The notes under the pieces were generated by a model. That model ran no database searches. It saw only the letters and a list, made by a program, of their open reading frames with translations, and was not told where the DNA came from. From a virus (Duplodnaviria > Caudoviricetes): 42,709 nucleotides of DNA. The stretch is taken from positions 1 through 42,709 of the IMG/VR virus record IMGVR_UViG_3300030106_002427. One strand, given 5' to 3'. This document shows positions 5,048 through 18,274 of the stretch, one piece after another. A program made the translations under genes and the position numbers. Position 1 is the stretch's first letter; each line of letters opens with the position of its first letter.

Positions 5048-5423
5048 AGGAATATTAGTAGCAATAGCAAGACCACAAATAGCAATAGCACAGAATGTAA
5101 GACATTCTACTGGTTATAAGATTAAATTATCAGTAGAAATTCGTGCAATGAATAGAGAGTTTTTGGCGCTGTTACAAGAATCATTAAAGGAATGTGGTAT
5201 AGATTCCTATTTAAAAGAAATAGAAAAGAAGAGTAGACCGTATCCAGTACTTAGAATTACTAATGCGGATAACTTAATTAATCTATTTCAACTTATACCA
5301 AACTTACCCAAACATTGTGTTAATTTTGATTCATTTTTAGAAGCAGTAACGCTGTTTTCTAATAAACATCATTTAACACAAAAAGGGTTAAACAGAATGT
5401 TAGAGATAAAGGGATTACTATGA
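5025..5423 (+). CDS. Single-domain LAGLIDADG-fold protein with degenerate catalytic helix
   Basis: N-terminal helix EQLEGILVAIA, beta region GYKIKLSVEI, C-terminal KHHLTQKGLNRMLEIK typical of LAGLIDADG proteins. Confidence 0.65.
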   Translation: MFTREQLEGILVAIARPQIAIAQNVRHSTGYKIKLSVEIRAMNREFLALLQESLKECGIDSYLKEIEKKSRPYPVLRITNADNLINLFQLIPNLPKHCVNFDSFLEAVTLFSNKHHLTQKGLNRMLEIKGLL

Positions 5424-6274
5424 GTTTAATAAATATGGGAGAAAAGAAAAGACCAATATTAATTACAGGAAAAAGCGGAACTGGAAAAAGCACTATGGCT
5501 AAGGCTATAATAGATAACGATGATGTGTTAATCTATTATGCTAATGAATTAGAAGATAGAGATTGGAAGTCCGTTGAACAAGATATTATTATTGAAGAAG
5601 TACATTACAAACCTAAGAAGGATATTGTGATGGATATAATACGAAATGCGAAAGGTTCTATTGTATTAACTTCTAATAATGAAAAAGATGTTCCAAAGGT
5701 AATTAAGAATTGTTGTAAAGTTAAAAGGGCTGGAACTAAAAAACACCTTATAGATAATATAAAGCGGTTAGCACCAAGAAGTGAAGAACCGTATAATATC
5801 AATAAAAGTGTTTTTGATTTAGTAGGGGATTATCTAAAAAACCCTAATAGAGATTTAGTTCTAAAGTTTTTAAAATATAATAAACCACCCGATGTTCAGA
5901 TAATGACTTGGTTAGGAATGAATCTTCATCCTAATAAGTTAACGTTTGTAGATGGGGTAGTTAAGAGAAGGTGGTCATCAGATTACTTTTATGAGTTGTT
6001 GGCTTACTCACATGATGGTAGAATATTTTCAAGATTAACTTTCCCTAAAAGGGGTAGTTATTCTAAAATACCTACTATACTTAGAAAGTTAAAGATTAAA
6101 CCAAATCAAGGTTACTTAATCAACCAATTGTTAATGGATGATGAATTTCATACATGGGCAAGTAAAAGATTAAAGAGTGAAGAAAAAAGAGTACTGGGAA
6201 TAAAAGAAAGAGCAAGACCAAGAACTGCTCCCATTATTCCCGAAAGAACCCTTAAGTTAGAAGGGTGGTTTTAA
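5420..6274 (+). CDS. Clamp loader large subunit-like AAA+ protein (RFC-L-like, shortened)
   Basis: Walker A GKSGTGKS, Walker B variant IIIEEVH, LTSN sensor; adjacent to RFC small subunit; ends LEGWF. Confidence 0.65.
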   Translation: MSLINMGEKKRPILITGKSGTGKSTMAKAIIDNDDVLIYYANELEDRDWKSVEQDIIIEEVHYKPKKDIVMDIIRNAKGSIVLTSNNEKDVPKVIKNCCKVKRAGTKKHLIDNIKRLAPRSEEPYNINKSVFDLVGDYLKNPNRDLVLKFLKYNKPPDVQIMTWLGMNLHPNKLTFVDGVVKRRWSSDYFYELLAYSHDGRIFSRLTFPKRGSYSKIPTILRKLKIKPNQGYLINQLLMDDEFHTWASKRLKSEEKRVLGIKERARPRTAPIIPERTLKLEGWF

Positions 6275-7274: not shown

Positions 7275-8492
7275 ATGAAAGAAGAAATGAAAAATGAAAT
7301 AGAAAAATACGCAGAAAAATTAGGCGTTAGTGTTGAACAAGCACAAGCAGACTATGAGGATATAGTTGCAAAGCATGATTTAAACCTAGAAGATGAAAAC
7401 GAATTTAAAATCGCAAGAAGTCTTTTTAGGTCTAAATTCTCTCAACAAATGGCGACAAAGAAAAAAGAAGCAGAGGGCGGGACCACGGAATATGATGGTC
7501 CTACTTATACTAAAACTGCTACTGGTTTCTTTTATGCAGTTGAAGGGGCTAGAGATTGGGAAGAAAATAGAAGAAACAATTTACTTGCTGATTACCAAAG
7601 AGATGCAACAGCATGTCTTAACTCTGGAAGTGTAGCAGTAGCAGTATCTTTAGAGGATGGAAGGCATGAAGTTACCATGTTATCTAAAGGTGAAATGGTT
7701 ACTAAAGTTATGGAAAAAATACCTGATAGTGGAATGCAAGTTGATGACGATAAATGGATTATCCCTGTAGATAATAGACAAGCATTTGCTAGTGGTCAAC
7801 CTAATCCTAGATACGGAAAACCTTTACCTGCTGAAGCATGGTCAAGAAGGTTATTCTTTGTAGGTAAACTTGATGATGGTGAATACCAAGAATATCAGTT
7901 AAGAATGAGTGGAGAACAATGTAAAGACTTTTCACCAACAACATTTAGTTGGTGTTCATTTACTTGTGTTCCTAATTCAAACAATGCTAATATTCTAAGT
8001 GCTAGAAAAGATGGTAGTACAGTATCTTCTCTACAATACTTAGAGTTAGAAGATAGCATTATTGAAGTGGTACAATCTACATTAGGTGAAAGAATAGTAG
8101 AACTAACTGGTTTACAATCAGCACATACAGATAATTCACACAAGAAATCAGATGAAAGAATTATTGTTACAGATGGTAATGTTGAGAACATGAACTTACA
8201 ACAAACTGCTAACGGAAACCAAACACTATATCTTAGCGATTTAAATGCTGACTTTAATTGGGATGGAGAAGGTTACTCATCAGTAACATGTTGGGTTCCT
8301 TCTTATGTCAATATTGATTTTGGTATTGGTAGTAATGTAATTGTTTGTGGTAGAACTTCTCAAGGAACAGATAGAGAAACAGGAGAATTAAGACCTGTTT
8401 CAATTAATGTTTTAGGATTGTATGCTATTGATAGACATGGAAGCGCTGAAGTAAATACCGTTGTTGTGGAAGATAATGGGGAATGGTTCTGA
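7275..8492 (+). CDS. Probable single-stranded DNA-binding protein (RPA/OB-fold-like)
   Basis: C-terminal OB-like pattern (ITDGNVENM...LYLSDL...VTCW...GSNVIVCGR...SINV); acidic-aromatic tail EDNGEWF; lies between RFC and recombinase-like ATPase. Confidence 0.55.
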   Translation: MKEEMKNEIEKYAEKLGVSVEQAQADYEDIVAKHDLNLEDENEFKIARSLFRSKFSQQMATKKKEAEGGTTEYDGPTYTKTATGFFYAVEGARDWEENRRNNLLADYQRDATACLNSGSVAVAVSLEDGRHEVTMLSKGEMVTKVMEKIPDSGMQVDDDKWIIPVDNRQAFASGQPNPRYGKPLPAEAWSRRLFFVGKLDDGEYQEYQLRMSGEQCKDFSPTTFSWCSFTCVPNSNNANILSARKDGSTVSSLQYLELEDSIIEVVQSTLGERIVELTGLQSAHTDNSHKKSDERIIVTDGNVENMNLQQTANGNQTLYLSDLNADFNWDGEGYSSVTCWVPSYVNIDFGIGSNVIVCGRTSQGTDRETGELRPVSINVLGLYAIDRHGSAEVNTVVVEDNGEWF

Positions 8493-9494: not shown

Positions 9495-10274
9495 ATGAGA
9501 TTAGAATTTGATAAAAAAGAAATGAAAGATGCATTGAAAAATGTTGAACTAAAAGGAAAATGGTCGGTGACTGGAGGATTATCTTCAAAGTCTTTGGGTA
9601 AATACATTCAGTTTCAATTACAAGATAACAGATTAATTATGTTTAATGCAGATGAATCAACAGTATGTGGTAAGAGTATATCGGTAGACTGTGAAACAGA
9701 AGAATATTCTTTTATCTTAGAATTGGATACACTAAAAAAGTACTTAGATAAAATGTCTGATTCTATTACTTTAGATGTTGGTACTACAGTTGTTATGCAA
9801 TCAGGCGGTAAAAGAGCAACAATGCCAATGGTAGTTAGACACCCATTTGAAGGTAGAATAGAACGTCTGATAAATCAATGGCCTTTAAGTTATAATGAAA
9901 ACTTAGAGGAATTATTATCTTTAGGTGAAATAAAAGTAGAGTGTGGAATACAAGTTACTGGAGCAGAACTACAGGAATCTTTAGATGCCTGTGAGATAGT
10001 AAATAACGGAATATATAAATTAGACTTTAAAGAAACAGATGACTTAACAGATGCAAAGTTTGTTATTTCATCCGAAGAGATTGCTTCTTCTTATAGAGAA
10101 GAAATGACATTTAGTAATAATATAGGTGAATCTGCTACAGTTGTATTTAGTGGACCACTACATAAGTTCTTTAATAAAGACGATAAAATAAATATCTTTA
10201 TTGGAGATAATCAACCAATAATAATGGTTACAGAAAATAGCGCTATAATTAGAGCGCCAAGATTAGGTGTTTAA
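9495..10274 (+). CDS. pcna: DNA polymerase sliding clamp (PCNA-like)
   Basis: 259 aa, acidic, two-domain beta-alpha-beta pattern; C-terminal FIGDNQPI...IIRAPR resembles the PCNA end (xxAPR); near RFC and PolB. Confidence 0.8.
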   Translation: MRLEFDKKEMKDALKNVELKGKWSVTGGLSSKSLGKYIQFQLQDNRLIMFNADESTVCGKSISVDCETEEYSFILELDTLKKYLDKMSDSITLDVGTTVVMQSGGKRATMPMVVRHPFEGRIERLINQWPLSYNENLEELLSLGEIKVECGIQVTGAELQESLDACEIVNNGIYKLDFKETDDLTDAKFVISSEEIASSYREEMTFSNNIGESATVVFSGPLHKFFNKDDKINIFIGDNQPIIMVTENSAIIRAPRLGV

Positions 10275-10689
10275 TATGGGTTGGGATGGCGGAGTTTTGA
10301 CTAATAAATTGAGTGACCCATATGATAAAATTTATACATGTCATGATGTTGAATATGGATTAGAATTATGGGAAGATGGTGTGTGTTTCTGGAATAGTGA
10401 AGAATCTCCTTATATACATACATATGTTATCCATTTTTGGCCTAAAAAGGGAAGTATTTTACACAAAAAATGGAAGTATTTTGTAGGAGGGCATACGTAT
10501 CAGAGGGCCGCTTATACCGAAGAAGAAGCCCATAACTTAGCCCAAGATATAATAATTGAAAGAATTTTAGAAGATGATTTACTTTTTAGATTTAGTTACT
10601 GGAAAAAAGATATAGAAGGAAACGATGTTTGGGACAATCAAATAGAACCTGTAACAAGGAGGGAATATAATGATAATAACTTGGACTGA
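10267..10689 (+). CDS. Hypothetical protein
   Basis: Trp/Tyr-rich ORF filling the gap between PCNA and PolB; start codon uncertain. Confidence 0.6.
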   Translation: MFNMGWDGGVLTNKLSDPYDKIYTCHDVEYGLELWEDGVCFWNSEESPYIHTYVIHFWPKKGSILHKKWKYFVGGHTYQRAAYTEEEAHNLAQDIIIERILEDDLLFRFSYWKKDIEGNDVWDNQIEPVTRREYNDNNLD

Positions 10690-12292
10690 TAACGATAGAA
10701 GTATAAAAATAAGATGGAGAGATAAGGATAAAATAAGAAAGGAAAAAGTCATTTCAGACTTTAAACCTTATTTCTTCATTAGGTCTATCGACAATAAACC
10801 CGATACTTACAAAACTAAGCATCATATTATAGGTAAAGATTCAGTCAAACAAACAGGTTTCTATGAATATAAAAAAGGTAATTGGAGAAACTTAGAAGGT
10901 CATACTTTAACTAAAGTTTTTTACTCACATCCTAAAGATATGAAGGATGCAAGAAGACCATTTAGAAATACATGGGAAGGAGATGTACCAATACTTAGAA
11001 GATACTGTGTAGATGAACTGGACAGAGTTCCCGAATATGAAATGAGAAAATGGTATTGGGATATGGAATGGTTGCCCGATGCTCATAAAGATGCAGGGGC
11101 TATAACGGCTATTGGTGTATATGATAGTTATACTAATAAATCTAAATTATACACATGGTCTTATGAAGATAAATCAGAAAAAGAAATGCTTGAAGAATTT
11201 GTAAAAGATATACAAGAACAAGACCCCGACATGTTGATTGCTTGGTGGGGATTAAAGTCCGATGTTCCACAATTAATTAAAAGGTTATTTGAGAACAACA
11301 TAGACCCAAGAAAGTTATCTCCATATAAAGAAGTAAAAGGTGTAAGTTACAAAGCATTAGGTAGTGTTGATTATAGTAATATAGCACAACCAATTAAAGG
11401 AAGATTATGTTTGAATTTAGATTTAGCATTTGAACGTCAGTGGAATGATGCTCAACGTGGAACACTACCTAGCACATCTTTAGATTATTGTGCAAGTGTT
11501 TCTGTTGGAGAGACTAAAAAGAAAGACTCTAAGTTTACAGATAGAAATGAATTCTTTATGAGAGCATGGGAAGAAGATACTCAGAATTATTTAGAGTACT
11601 GTTTACAGGATGCTGAATTACTCTATAAGATAGACGAAGAGATGGGGTTAAGTGAAGGAGTATTAGCGATTCAAAAACTGATTAAAGCACCTTTTGAAGA
11701 TTGTTTTTTCGTAAGTCACATGGGTAGCACATATTTCATGCGTAATGCATTTTGGAAAGCACCCACTGGTAAGTATGGAGAGAAGAAACAATACGATGGG
11801 GCGATGATTTACAATCCGTTAGACGAAGGAACTAATGGATTACATCTCAACGTAGCGGCGTTTGATTTTGCTTCGCTATATCCCTCTTGTATATTAGCAA
11901 GAAATATTTCTTGGGAAACGAAATCTAGCAAAGAAACTGAATTTGCTGTTAATCTTAAAACACCAAGAAACTTCTCTAATATAAAACAAGAGGATATGAG
12001 GTATTATAGAACCGATAAGTTAGGATTATTACCGAATGCTATTGCTACGTTAAAACCTTTGAGAAAAGAATACAAGTTAAAAATGTTAGAAGCATTACAA
12101 GAAGGAAATAAGAAAGAATATGTAAAATGGAATTCAATGCAAATGGCTACTAAAAGATTGTTAGCATCTTTTTATGGAGTTGTAGCATTACAAGGATTCG
12201 GTTGGTATGATGTAGATTTAGCCGCATCTATTACAGCCAGTGCTAGAGAAGCAATTAGAGAAGCGGCATTTAAAGTGAGGGAATTACAATGA
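10670..12292 (+). CDS. polB: Family B DNA polymerase, N-terminal part (3'-5' exonuclease, motifs A and B)
   Basis: ExoI WDMEW, ExoIII YCLQD, motif A DFASLYPS, motif B KRLLASFYG; stops before motif C. Confidence 0.95.
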   Translation: MIITWTDNDRSIKIRWRDKDKIRKEKVISDFKPYFFIRSIDNKPDTYKTKHHIIGKDSVKQTGFYEYKKGNWRNLEGHTLTKVFYSHPKDMKDARRPFRNTWEGDVPILRRYCVDELDRVPEYEMRKWYWDMEWLPDAHKDAGAITAIGVYDSYTNKSKLYTWSYEDKSEKEMLEEFVKDIQEQDPDMLIAWWGLKSDVPQLIKRLFENNIDPRKLSPYKEVKGVSYKALGSVDYSNIAQPIKGRLCLNLDLAFERQWNDAQRGTLPSTSLDYCASVSVGETKKKDSKFTDRNEFFMRAWEEDTQNYLEYCLQDAELLYKIDEEMGLSEGVLAIQKLIKAPFEDCFFVSHMGSTYFMRNAFWKAPTGKYGEKKQYDGAMIYNPLDEGTNGLHLNVAAFDFASLYPSCILARNISWETKSSKETEFAVNLKTPRNFSNIKQEDMRYYRTDKLGLLPNAIATLKPLRKEYKLKMLEALQEGNKKEYVKWNSMQMATKRLLASFYGVVALQGFGWYDVDLAASITASAREAIREAAFKVRELQ

Positions 12293-12747
12293 TAAAAGAA
12301 GATAAAAAATTAGGAATATTAAAAGAAACAGATACTACTTGGTATAGAGAGGCATTAGAATATATTGGGGATAACAAGATAGATATGATGAGAGAATTAG
12401 GCGCTTATTTTGACGTAGTTGAAAGGTGTTCAAGAACATGGGAATGCACATGGGGATTTGTTAAAAATAAAACCTTTGAAGAATTAGAAGAATCACATGG
12501 TAAAGCAGAATATTTAGAGCAAACTTGGAGAGGTAAAATACTAGGAGTGAAATTTAAAAATAAAGAATGGACTATAGATTTACCTCGATATTTCATTTGG
12601 GATGAGGATGATGAACGTGTTAGTATTTTACCTAAAGATTTACCAGTCAAAATAAATAATGTTGGTAGGTGTGAAGGAATAATCAATGGTGAAAGATGTG
12701 ATGTTGCTCCTAGAGATGGGGATTTATGTCACCTTTGTAAGAGGTAA
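12289..12747 (+). CDS. Hypothetical protein with C-terminal zinc-finger-like motif (within split polB)
   Basis: CEG...RC...CHLCKR; ATGA overlap with polB N-part. Confidence 0.65.
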   Translation: MIKEDKKLGILKETDTTWYREALEYIGDNKIDMMRELGAYFDVVERCSRTWECTWGFVKNKTFEELEESHGKAEYLEQTWRGKILGVKFKNKEWTIDLPRYFIWDEDDERVSILPKDLPVKINNVGRCEGIINGERCDVAPRDGDLCHLCKR

Positions 12748-12752
12748 TTATA

Positions 12753-12941
12753 ATGAGTAGAATAGAAGATGAAGTATGTAAAAAAATTAAAGCACGTTCA
12801 GACGTGGGCAAAAGAAAGTATGGAGTTACTATGGAAGAAGAAACTCTTACAAGATTAGAGTGGTTAATACACGCTCAAGAAGAAGCAATGGACTTAGCGG
12901 TTTATTTGCAAAAACTAATAGAAATGGAGGAAGAACAATGA
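12753..12941 (+). CDS. MazG-like all-alpha nucleotide pyrophosphohydrolase-type small protein
   Basis: GKRKYG...WLIHAQEEAMDLAVYL carries the EExxD helix of the MazG-like superfamily. Confidence 0.55.
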   Translation: MSRIEDEVCKKIKARSDVGKRKYGVTMEEETLTRLEWLIHAQEEAMDLAVYLQKLIEMEEEQ

Positions 12942-13207
12942 GATTAAGAAAAGATGGAGAGATAAGAAAAGAAGCACATAGAAAAAATGCTAGAATAATT
13001 AATTGGGTCATAGATATATTAGAAGGAGATGTCATGTCAACTAATGAAATATTAGAAGGTCTAAAAAATATAAAGATAAAACCATATGGTTATCAACCTA
13101 AAAACTTACCTTCAATAAATAAACTTGTTAGTATATTATATTCTAACCATGAGTTTATTAGAGTTAATGCTAAAACAGAACGCCCTGCTTTATGGAGGTT
13201 AAGATAA
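12938..13207 (+). CDS. Winged-helix DNA-binding protein (paralog of 1818..2063)
   Basis: MSTNEILEGL...LPSINKLVSIL...EFIRVNAKTERPALWRLR; GGAGG SD and ATGA overlap place start at 12938. Confidence 0.65.
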   Translation: MRLRKDGEIRKEAHRKNARIINWVIDILEGDVMSTNEILEGLKNIKIKPYGYQPKNLPSINKLVSILYSNHEFIRVNAKTERPALWRLR

Positions 13208-13560
13208 TGACTAGAAAAAAGAAAACTTATGAAGAAAGATTACTTAGAAAAGCACTGGAAAAAATGTCTTTGCACGATTCTATACTATTAATGATGCATA
13301 AACTAGGAGTAACAAAAGAACAACATGGTGCAATAATGGAATGGGAACAGTTTGAAGGAGTAATGGAAAGAAGACCCGAAACTAAAAAAGATGCTGAAAT
13401 GACATTTTCAATAGATGCTATTGCTGGTAATACCGCTATGTTCCATTTATGGTTATTAGGTAGAGTTAAAGATAGATGGGAAAAGGAAGACTTCAATCCC
13501 GAAAAAGCACCACGAACAGTGAACATCAAAGCCCAAGTAGATTGGAGTGACGATATATGA
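13207..13560 (+). CDS. Hypothetical protein (within split polB)
   Basis: TAATG overlap, GGAGG SD; its stop overlaps the start of polB C-part. Confidence 0.65.
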   Translation: MTRKKKTYEERLLRKALEKMSLHDSILLMMHKLGVTKEQHGAIMEWEQFEGVMERRPETKKDAEMTFSIDAIAGNTAMFHLWLLGRVKDRWEKEDFNPEKAPRTVNIKAQVDWSDDI

Positions 13561-14483
13561 AAGTAGTTTATGCACATACTGATTCTCTTTATGTTCCTGT
13601 TCCTTCTATTGAGAAGGCTCAAGAAGTTAGAGAGATACTAAATACACATATTCAGGAAAACGTATTTCCTAATATTATGGGTTTAGAGAATCACCCTATG
13701 GATTTAGAGTTTGAAAAATATTACTCTGTATTAGGTGTAGGTGCAACTAAGAATAGAAATGCTGGATTTATTAACTGGAAAGACGGAGTATATTTACAAG
13801 AACAAGAATTTGTTTGTACTGGATTTACTTTGAAGAGAATAGCAGAATCTAAAGTCGGTAAAGATATTCAGAAAGAAGCATTGCAAATGTGGATTAATCA
13901 AAAGACAGAAGATGAAATAATATCTTATGTTAGTGACTTATATCATAAGGTTAGAAATGGTGATGTATCTAAATTAGATTTAGTAAAAAGAAGTAGAGTT
14001 AGAGAAAACCGTTTAACTCTAAAATGTCAATGTCGTAAAACATACAACCTAGAATATGTTAGAGGACTTTTGAAAAGAGTTCCCGATGCGTATTGTGAGA
14101 AAGAAAATTGCAATACTAAGTTACGTAATTGTACAACTGTAGAAGGTAAACGCCCCTCATTTGGCGGAGGATTTGCTGGTGTTTTATATTATAATGAACA
14201 CATCAATCCTAAAGATAAATTGAATGATTCTTTTTATCATATGAAATGTAATTTTAAGATACCCCAGTCTTTAACTTACACTAATTGGAATGGGGATGAA
14301 AAAAAAGCAGGTTATATCGCTGTAAGAAATCTATCAGAATTAGAGAACTTTGAACCCGACTGGAACTTTTTAGCAGAGTCAGAAGTCATAAAAAAGGTTC
14401 AGCCTATATTCGATGCAATGGGATGGGACGTAGAGAAACTTAAAAGAGATAACAAACAAAGAACTTTGGATGAGTGGTTTTAA
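13557..14483 (+). CDS. polB: Family B DNA polymerase, C-terminal part (motif C, thumb, Cys-rich insert, PIP box)
   Basis: YAHTDS motif C variant, LEFEKYY, KNRNAG, terminal QRTLDEWF PIP box. Confidence 0.92.
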   Translation: MKVVYAHTDSLYVPVPSIEKAQEVREILNTHIQENVFPNIMGLENHPMDLEFEKYYSVLGVGATKNRNAGFINWKDGVYLQEQEFVCTGFTLKRIAESKVGKDIQKEALQMWINQKTEDEIISYVSDLYHKVRNGDVSKLDLVKRSRVRENRLTLKCQCRKTYNLEYVRGLLKRVPDAYCEKENCNTKLRNCTTVEGKRPSFGGGFAGVLYYNEHINPKDKLNDSFYHMKCNFKIPQSLTYTNWNGDEKKAGYIAVRNLSELENFEPDWNFLAESEVIKKVQPIFDAMGWDVEKLKRDNKQRTLDEWF

Positions 14484-16417: not shown

Positions 16418-17512
16418 ATGAAATTCCCTAGAGAAGTATGGCCTAGTGCTAATAAACAAACTAATACTTTTGGTAGTAAAAGAATTGTAGTTGATAACCA
16501 AGAAGAATTTAATTCTTGGGTTAATGCTCACAATGGTAAGATGAACTGCTTTACATCTGTATATGATTATAAAGAATATACAAATAAACATGCAGTAGTA
16601 TCTACTGTTATTCTTGATAGAATATTTTTAGATTTTGACGCTCATCATGGGGAAACAGATAAAATAACTGGCTCTCAAATTATTAATCCCGATGCAATTA
16701 AAACTTGTTTAGAGGATTTAAATTTAGTATGTCAATATCTTACAACTCATGATTATAAGTTTGATATGTCTTTTTCAGGTAGAGGTTTTCACTTATATGT
16801 TTATGGAGAACCCACAAAAGATATTAGAAGATTAACGGCCTTCTTTAATGAAGTTAAGAAGGTAACAGTAAATGGAACTTTAGATAGTTCTGGAATACAA
16901 GAAAGAAGATTAAGACGTATTAGAAATACTATGAATCTAAAATCTTCTTACGGAGAAGGATGCTATTACTGTATTCCACTAGAATTAAAAGATATATTTT
17001 TAGACGCTAGTGAATTACTAATATTAGCAATGAAACCAAATAAGATTCCTTTAACTACTTATGGTGAAACATTAGTTAAATGGCCTGAAGTAGCACCAAT
17101 AGAGGAATCAGAGATTGAGGTTGATGTAATTAATGTGGGGAATCTACCATTACCCCCATGTATGTATAGTGCTATTATGGTAGAAAACCCAACTGATGAT
17201 GCTAGAATGAGAGCCGTTAGTTGGTATAAAGAATTATTATTGTGGACTGATTTAAGTATTCCATTTGGGAATAACAATGTAGTTCCCGATAAAGAAACTC
17301 GCAACAGGATAGGAAATCAGATTGTTGCAGAGATTAAGAATTTACACGAAAATTATAACGTGTGGTTAGATTTCAATGAAGCGATAACAAAACAAAGAAT
17401 GGGTTCTATCTTGGAAAAGAATTATAATTTCCCAAGATGCGAAACTCTTATCGGTCAAGGTTATTGCGTAGGAAAATGTTGGAGGTTACAAAATGCAAAA
17501 AACACTATTTGA
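16418..17512 (+). CDS. Archaeo-eukaryotic primase; PriS catalytic domain fused to PriL-CTD-like four-Cys domain
   Basis: FLDFD motif I, SGRGFHLY motif II, D...RRLRRI motif III; LPPC...FPRC...GYCVGKC. Confidence 0.9.
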   Translation: MKFPREVWPSANKQTNTFGSKRIVVDNQEEFNSWVNAHNGKMNCFTSVYDYKEYTNKHAVVSTVILDRIFLDFDAHHGETDKITGSQIINPDAIKTCLEDLNLVCQYLTTHDYKFDMSFSGRGFHLYVYGEPTKDIRRLTAFFNEVKKVTVNGTLDSSGIQERRLRRIRNTMNLKSSYGEGCYYCIPLELKDIFLDASELLILAMKPNKIPLTTYGETLVKWPEVAPIEESEIEVDVINVGNLPLPPCMYSAIMVENPTDDARMRAVSWYKELLLWTDLSIPFGNNNVVPDKETRNRIGNQIVAEIKNLHENYNVWLDFNEAITKQRMGSILEKNYNFPRCETLIGQGYCVGKCWRLQNAKNTI

Positions 17513-17576
17513 ATATGGACTAGTATTAGAAGGACAAATGACGCTATTAGATTTTGGATTAGAATTGGAGGATTAA
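17493..17576 (+). CDS. 27-aa microprotein with two tandem PIP-box-like motifs
   Basis: MQKTLFEYGLVLEGQMTLLDFGLELED*; GGAGG SD at 17481-17485; fills the primase-XPF gap. Confidence 0.65.
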   Translation: MQKTLFEYGLVLEGQMTLLDFGLELED

Positions 17577-17578
17577 TT

Positions 17579-18274
17579 ATGGCGTTAATAATTGACAGTA
17601 GAGAAAAATCTATTTTAACAGATTTAGTTATAGAAAAGGCTGAAAAGTTAAATGTAGAAACTACAAAACAATGGATTGAAGTTGGAGATTATGTAGTCGG
17701 AGATGTATGTTTTGAGGCTAAATCAAGTCTTGATTTTATATCGTCTGTAATGACTAAACGCCTATGGACCCAATTAGATAATATGGACAGATGTTATAAA
17801 ACAAATATAGTTATTATTTATGGGTCTTTAGCAGATGCTTTAGAATATACAGGGCATTCGGCTAAATATAATGATAGACCTATAGCAGAGAAAAAGAGAT
17901 ATTTGACTAACAAGTTTTATGGAGCAATTGGTAGAATAATGTTAGATTCAGATATAAAACCAGTGTGGGTATCTAATGAACATTCAGCCGCTAACATAAT
18001 TACTAGTGTTGCTAAAATGCAACCAATAGATAGGCCACCAATTAAACCTCATATCTTTAAAAGATTTACAAGTGATGACATAAGAATTAATATGTTATCC
18101 ACTATTAAAGGTATAAGTGAAAAGAAAGCAAAGATGCTTATTAAAGAATATGGCTCACTAATGGAGATTGGTGATTGCGATAAAAGGGAATTGTGTTCCC
18201 TAGACGGAATAGGAGATGCAACAGCAGAAAAAATCCTATCCGTTTTTAACTCAGAAAAGAAGGTGAAACAATGA
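17579..18274 (+). CDS. ERCC4/XPF (Hef-type) structure-specific nuclease with HhH2 domain
   Basis: IIDSRE, VGDY, FEAKS..DF..S; C-terminal IKGISEKKA and LDGIGDATA helix-hairpin-helix motifs. Confidence 0.92.
   Translation: MALIIDSREKSILTDLVIEKAEKLNVETTKQWIEVGDYVVGDVCFEAKSSLDFISSVMTKRLWTQLDNMDRCYKTNIVIIYGSLADALEYTGHSAKYNDRPIAEKKRYLTNKFYGAIGRIMLDSDIKPVWVSNEHSAANIITSVAKMQPIDRPPIKPHIFKRFTSDDIRINMLSTIKGISEKKAKMLIKEYGSLMEIGDCDKRELCSLDGIGDATAEKILSVFNSEKKVKQ

Follow-up and report, generated by a model that had tools for sequence, protein, structure and literature searches.

A virus-restricted microprotein family of repeated PIP-like units, with a plausible clamp-blocking function

Description of the locus

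The window is the whole analysed stretch of viral DNA, 42,709 nt in length (IMG/VR record IMGVR_UViG_3300030106_002427); unprefixed positions refer to it. The relevant features are the following.

5420..6274, + strand: putative large subunit of the clamp loader (AAA and phrog_168 clamp-loader matches; subunit label presumptive)
9495..10274, + strand: viral sliding clamp of PCNA fold, candidate partner of the peptide (AF2, Foldseek, phrog_947 E 1e-4)
10670..12292: split PolB, other half (domain search)
13557..14483, + strand: split PolB, C-terminal half
16418..17512, + strand: putative archaeo-eukaryotic primase, upstream gene (label from an earlier reading and gene order; phrog_9660, of no assigned function, is the only match)
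17481..17486, + strand: Shine-Dalgarno-like GGAGGT, the last of its six bases 7 nt upstream of the ATG
17493..17576, + strand: gene of a 27-aa microprotein of two head-to-tail 13-residue units
17496..17534, + strand: unit 1, PIP-like motif QKTLFEYG and five residues; Q, T, L, E and G invariant in 11/11 distinct cores
17535..17573, + strand: unit 2, PIP-like motif QMTLLDFG and five residues; Q and L invariant, aromatic in 11/11 and G in 10/11 cores
17567..17572, + strand: GGAGGA, likely ribosome-binding site of XPF
17579..18274, + strand: ERCC4/XPF nuclease with HhH repeats, downstream gene (PF02732, E 1e-15)

By gene content the window appears to be a split-PolB (group B) magrovirus. The replication module holds both PolB halves, RFC-type ATPases, a ligase, nucleases including ERCC4, and a protein of PCNA fold. 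Group B magroviruses carry a split PolB with clamp, clamp loader, ligase and nucleases in one module (PMC5434244), and a module of the window's kind also occurs in PMC10768690. The earlier note on this DNA had read 9495-10274 as a divergent viral PCNA, and structure prediction agrees: the AF2 model (pLDDT 90.9) has the two-domain clamp fold, its best Foldseek match is P. furiosus PCNA (E 8e-14), the TM-score to archaeal PCNAs is about 0.7, and identity to the top-ranked solved archaeal PCNAs is 13-15%. TIGR00590 misses the viral clamps in 5/5 records. The C-terminal PolB half ends, as had been noted, in the canonical PIP QRTLDEWF (14457-14480). The tail of the putative clamp-loader large subunit, TLKLEGWF, is without the PIP glutamine. 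No Pfam match was obtained for the primase gene.

Four to five small ORFs lie between the PolB halves (12289-13560), and a homologue of 12753-12941 follows the peptide gene in loci L220 and L257. The 405-aa protein of 7275-8492 is SSB-like by gene order only; in most relatives it ends in a D/E-rich stretch followed by WF, an acidic-aromatic tail reminiscent of those with which SSBs bind their partners. Locus L279 (2290-3444) encodes, between clamp and PolB, a 384-aa Cys/His repeat protein with a probable endonuclease C-terminus.

The microprotein gene

The ORF at 17493-17576 (+) starts with ATG at 17493, comprises 84 nt and encodes 27 aa, MQKTLFEYGLVLEGQMTLLDFGLELED. Two QxTLx[ED][FY]G motifs start at residues 2 and 15, 13 residues apart, in agreement with the first reading. 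That reading placed the ORF in the gap between primase and XPF. The gap, from the primase end at 17512 to the XPF start at 17579, is indeed 66 nt, but the ORF is longer, overlaps the primase 3' end by 20 nt and stops 2 nt upstream of XPF. The GGAGG proposed as its Shine-Dalgarno sequence is likewise present, but the same bases are the C-terminal Trp-Arg codons of the primase, are kept in relatives with and without the peptide, and directly precede XPF in most peptide-free relatives; by themselves they are therefore not independent evidence for a gene. The likely XPF ribosome-binding site overlaps the last codons of the peptide, and this double use of the bases may account in part for the acidic tail of the window's peptide.

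The two 39-nt halves of the gene agree at 27/39 bases and look like the outcome of an ancient tandem duplication of 13 codons. When the bases of the 170-nt region were shuffled, the double motif came up in one frame in 1 of 20,000 cases, and across the six frames of the window the peptide's double motif is the only one. At 17490-17492 the window has CAA where L002 and L003 have the primase stop TAA; the primase here runs seven residues further, over the peptide start.

Conservation and selection

Viral loci were selected on XPF alone, and the peptide follows the primase in 11 of these 80 (L001-L011), the best 80 of 149. In four close relatives (L012-L015) its slot holds an unrelated hydrophobic micro-ORF. 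In the majority of the more distant relatives the primase is joined straight to XPF, with the same GGAGG. Pairwise, uncorrected pN/pS values, calculated on related and non-independent sequences (10 XPF-selected loci with 9 distinct 24-codon cores; L005, identical to L004, omitted), are 0.089 for the Q/L/aromatic codons, 0.14 for T3/E6, 0.27 for G8 and 1.15 for the other (linker) positions; the whole peptide ORF gives 0.51 against 0.22 for the XPF control. Both other forward frames carry stops in 11/11 cores; one antisense frame is open in 10/11.

The peptide start lies at three different frame offsets from the primase stop among relatives, and a new AGGAG is found upstream where the start has moved off the Trp-Arg codons. 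A Shine-Dalgarno match of at least 4 nt precedes 38/38 distinct peptide ORFs, the best start being picked by this match. The differing offsets and the new sites at moved starts argue for an independent, translationally coupled gene and not a frameshift tail; a frameshift fusion to the primase was rejected because the offsets differ.

The ORF behaves as a real gene under motif-focused purifying selection. A stand-alone microprotein had been claimed on the expectation that the ORF and its Q, L and aromatic positions would be conserved in relatives, and they are, with selection falling on exactly these positions. That the ORF is a non-functional spacer or a frameshifted primase tail is highly improbable. 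Such a sequence would fit the Shine-Dalgarno match explained by primase codons, the intermediate pN/pS over the whole ORF and the open antisense frame, but it would not fit purifying selection confined to the motif, the three offsets to the primase, the rarity of the double motif among shuffles, or the recurrence of the ORF, each time behind a Shine-Dalgarno match, at three unrelated gene slots.

The motif

The canonical PIP box is QXXhXXaa (PMC4929162). The peptide had been described as two PIP boxes. Position 1 is Gln and position 4 (Leu/Ile/Met) is Leu in both copies and in 11/11 cores, and position 7 is aromatic (Tyr and Phe here, F/Y in all 11 cores), but position 8, canonically aromatic, is Gly in both copies. 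With three of four canonical positions the units, measured against QXXhXXaa, are PIP-like, not canonical. Over 132 family units position 8 is Gly in 83%, Met in 8%, Leu in 3% and Ile in 3%, with no Phe, Tyr or Trp among the five commonest residues, which counts against PIP docking. PCNA is also bound by non-canonical PIPs that offer two hydrophobic anchors (PMC10087552). Through position 7 the unit resembles the PolB tails of split-PolB magroviruses and matches viral PolB and RFC-L tails.

Basic flanks raise the PCNA affinity of PIP peptides, and acidic flanks weaken binding to human PCNA (PMC6881253). Arg stands at position -1 in 70% of the 132 units; among multi-motif family members the N-flank is net positive in 43/62 and the C-flank negative in 46/62. 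The Arg and the basic N-flanks would fit higher PCNA affinity in the sense of that source. The window's peptide has a net charge of -5, which counts against tight clamp binding by this member; that of the viral clamp is -13. The PIP-degron pattern given in the same source (TD at 5-6, Lys/Arg at +4) is absent: FE and LD occupy positions 5-6, and a Glu/Leu region lies at +4.

Gly at position 8, together with at least 13 longer proteins in which two motifs are fused to a lipoprotein-like signal, could also indicate a short motif other than a PIP, such as a relic of DUF7487 RQTxLxxYG-type repeats or a motif for another host target. The family profile does reach three DUF7487 repeat proteins (E 4e-4 to 5e-4), by summing repeats. 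DUF7487 repeats, however, have a period of 23 residues, against 13-22 in the peptide family, and mostly Lys, Arg or Asn at position 6, where the family has Glu or Asp; DUF7487 (PF24308) matched none of 22 members at E up to 1. Selection on the PIP positions and the likeness to viral PolB and RFC-L tails further make a non-PIP motif quite unlikely.

The peptide family

The first pattern scan placed the gene after the primase in 16/16 viral matches, and a metagenome pattern scan did so in 30/31, the remaining one being a chance repeat (L118), which was dropped. With Gly removed from the pattern, 34 matches comprised 13 after the primase, 19 directly after an unsplit PolB and 2 by chance (L183 and L202, dropped). 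The viruses with unsplit PolB and the peptide after PolB have 44-52% GC. A free-spacing scan yielded 55 loci, 17 of them chance matches and the others family members with spacings of 13 in 31, 14 in 2, 15 in 3 and 19 in 2. For some members a lipoprotein-like gene lies next downstream or is fused with the motifs.

A family profile, built from 22 members, recovered 71 clusters at 90% identity, 27-111 aa in length, with two motifs in 61, one in 7, three in 1 and none by pattern in 2. Motif spacing is 13 in 41/63 pairs and 14-22 in the rest. The unit consensus is [RG]-Q-T-[TK]-L-x-[ED]-[FWY]-G-[LFM]-x-[FLI]-E. An index-free search gave 33 matches, 27 of them family members and 6 long, unrelated repeat proteins, dropped as chance; it added three three-copy forms, in two of which a Lys-rich linker leads up to the last motif. 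Thirteen residues is the unit length and the shortest spacing seen, not a ruler: a fixed 13-residue ruler, imposed by the first patterns, was abandoned when freer searches gave 14, 15 and 19, and then 13-22. The description of the peptide as bivalent thus holds for the window, with its two copies 13 apart, but is too narrow for a family with one-copy and three-copy forms and spacings of 14-22.

In 185,579 prokaryote genomes a strict pattern matched 6 times, 5 of the matches being unrelated and 1 a magrovirus-like contig. The latter (L271, 30 kb, with magrovirus PolB and the peptide gene) lies in a Parvibaculum bin, probably by binning error. No cellular copy was found in these genomes with the strict pattern, which weaker forms could escape. 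The gene is accessory, being present in 5/14 near-complete virus records and not found in 9/14, a tally that sets aside one further single match, in G009. Searches with the window's peptide gave no match in Pfam, PHROGs or, by tblastn, GenBank phages. For 22 family members Pfam gave scattered weak matches only (best E 0.008); a PDB sequence search gave nothing below E 0.47, and the ESM Atlas no usable match for a 33-aa relative. On this sequence evidence the peptides are a virus-restricted microprotein family of repeated PIP-like units.

In the fused forms, as in L289 (1179-1607; record G023) and in the P0107 and P0123-P0135 region, the motifs are in frame with a hydrophobic stretch that closes with a lipobox-like LAGC, and with a 110-aa domain. 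The peptide gene and the lipoprotein-like gene are separate neighbours in L225 and L269. ORFs of L173 (1515-1640) and P0136-P0138 open with a single extended unit followed by unrelated sequence (40 aa, 129 aa).

Comparison with known systems

The PIPs of archaeal PCNA clients (PolB, PolD, RFC-L, Fen1 and RNase H2) share Gln1, Leu4 and aromatic 7 with the viral unit, and a consensus peptide in the same review has Thr/Ser at 3 and an acid at 6, as here (PMC4929162). The viral unit differs in Gly8 followed by hydrophobic-x-hydrophobic, in its one to three repeats and in the lack of an attached enzyme. TIP, the Thermococcales inhibitor of PCNA (64 aa; PDB 5DA7), is cellular, with a folded C-terminal part and a single motif (same review), whereas the viral peptide is 27 aa of motifs only. 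The peptide thus lacks the TIP characters (about 64 aa, folded C-terminal part, Thermococcales), and no TIP match appeared in Pfam or PDB searches. The C-terminal PIP peptide of p21(Cip1), a basic-flanked competitive PCNA blocker, is similar in kind, but it is eukaryotic and a single canonical motif within a larger protein, while the peptide here is viral, tandem and motif-only. Several proteins of SIRV2 bind host PCNA.

Gp168 of phage Twort, also a small viral protein, halts host replication by way of the sliding clamp, as proposed here, but it acts on a bacterial clamp, fills the DNA channel and avoids the partner pocket (PMC8565349). The cPIP/iPIP pair of PolD DP2 likewise comprises two PIP motifs, with partner switching between primase and PCNA (PMC8096248), but is situated in a polymerase subunit and consists of two different motifs, unlike the stand-alone repeat of one motif in the viral peptide. 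By analogy, the peptide would act by pocket competition like TIP or the p21 PIP peptide, for a purpose like that of Gp168; it is a member of none of these systems.

No description of a PIP-only viral microprotein was found in the literature searched, with subscription papers mostly, and supplements, outside its scope. A term search of magrovirus papers gave neither 'PIP motif' nor 'PCNA-interacting', and supplements could list the ORF as hypothetical. In PMC11706807 a term search for clamp and PCNA came up empty, and PMC7544198 holds nothing relevant.

Proposed function

The peptide probably binds a sliding clamp of some kind, and a clamp-blocking function of the family is plausible. The favoured reading, a blocker with host PCNA as its main target, is given a probability of roughly 0.45. 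The peptide would be made together with the replication genes, its translation coupled to the upstream replication gene. Each unit would dock in the partner pocket of PCNA, with Gln1 in the Q-pocket and Leu4 and aromatic 7 in the hydrophobic pocket, and the Gly-hydrophobic-x-hydrophobic tail would substitute for aromatic 8 by following the interdomain loop. A linker of five residues is probably too short to span two pockets of one ring, so the repeat copies would not do this; extra copies may raise occupancy through rebinding or by linking two clamp rings. Host PolD, PolB, Fen1 and RFC would be displaced from PCNA and the viral replisome would receive the nucleotides, the virus meanwhile replicating on a diverged clamp of its own.

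The argument for a host target comes from the unsplit-PolB viruses. Their peptide motif is unchanged. A 246-255-aa gene before PolB encodes a putative clamp, with no similarity to the window's clamp family (hhalign 0.35% and 0.15%), and their PolB tails are without Q-x-x-L. In 6/6 records the only QxTLx[ED]-aromatic matches are the two of the peptide. Constancy of the motif, against drift in the viral clamp and its clients, suggests a conserved host protein as the target. The argument is weakest at the clamp identity of the 246-255-aa proteins, which is taken from position, size and faint matches: phrog_947 at E 0.002 for 1/5 scanned, and gp45-slide_C on 10% of one neighbouring Atlas cluster. 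A single-sequence AF2 model of one such protein was of low confidence (pLDDT 39.7). Because the window's PolB keeps a canonical PIP, the window's own clamp is probably open to this motif too and would not escape the blocker, and this counts against a blocker of the host clamp only.

A fuller picture is put forward tentatively and, taken as a whole, is somewhat doubtful. It is of a motif-only family across deeply diverged magrovirus lineages whose PIP-like units, one to three in number and equipped with basic linkers and tuned Gly-8 tails, would plug Poseidoniales PCNA and spare the viral clamp, as the first pocket-mimicking viral clamp inhibitors in archaea. Some members would be membrane-tethered through a lipoprotein signal, and the family would be paired with loss of the PIP glutamine from the clamp-loader tail. 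If true, viruses infecting an abundant group of marine archaea would have a minimal, undescribed means of stalling replication of the host's DNA. The PIP box would gain a Gly-8 variant, and a viral gene could consist of nothing but a repeated linear motif, a kind of gene that escapes gene callers and family databases. At 27 residues the peptide can be made synthetically and assayed on recombinant host and viral clamps without culture, so one host-takeover mechanism is directly testable.

Alternative targets

The peptide may instead act on the viral clamp, as a free PIP that takes over the role of the RFC-L tail or that times the exchange of PolB, clamp loader and nuclease. The putative RFC-L tail has a Q-type PIP in 13/14 peptide-free and 0/10 peptide-bearing records (24 split-PolB-type records; window 5420-6274 and homologues L295-L320), the peptide-bearing G028 is without the Q although inside the Q-tail group, and no RFC-L match was present in the fetched modules of 4/4 unsplit-PolB peptide carriers. 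The position of the gene, mostly within the replication operon, and the canonical PIP of the window's PolB agree with this. The RFC-L pattern, however, amounts to only 2-3 changes on the tree, with support of 82-91 for the position of G028, and G029, which is no more than a 15% fragment, is without both peptide and Q-tail. Nothing in a free peptide would tether it to the loader, and action on the viral clamp leaves the unchanged motif across dissimilar viral clamps unexplained. The inverse pattern of peptide and RFC-L tail fits either compensation in trans or retuning of the viral partners to escape a host-directed blocker, and the viral clamp is considered an unlikely main target.

PIP motifs also bind archaeal primase, which counts against a clamp as the necessary target; in T. 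kodakarensis the PIP of DP2 is essential for PriL binding (PMC8096248). The motif could thus mimic the C-terminal PIP of PolD DP2 and bind host PriL or the viral primase, either uncoupling the host primosome or linking primase to clamp. The nearly constant place of the gene after the primase in both pattern scans is in keeping with this for the window's lineage, but other members follow PolB or precede a lipoprotein gene, and the primase-XPF slot also takes unrelated small genes. The use of one motif in both copies, and the existence of single-copy forms, speak against a bridge between two partners; a primase target is very unlikely. Still further down, and hardly credible, is the earlier proposal that the peptide supplies a PIP in trans to the adjacent XPF. 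Its starting point is right, in that the genes are adjacent in the window's lineage and the window's XPF has no PIP-like motif. No XPF listed has a C-terminal PIP, however, with or without the peptide, and an internal look-alike occurs in 3 XPF rows, all of them peptide-free (the XPF tree is a quick version only). Genes are inserted between peptide and XPF in L008, L120, L123, L128 and L145, family members occupy other gene slots, and the peptide has no second binding surface. Of the options in the earlier note the host-PCNA blocker remains the preferred one, on indirect evidence.

The primase-XPF interval is an insertion hot spot (L008, L012-L015, L029, L056, L059-L061, L064, L066, L072, L076, L077). 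Inserted there are hydrophobic micro-ORFs (about 30 aa) and larger genes (about 100 aa), and L008 has two Cys-rich ORFs. In L120, L123, L128 and L145 a second micro-ORF lies between peptide and XPF; it is 34 aa, highly charged, alike in all four, and carries the motif ARKGWETRR.
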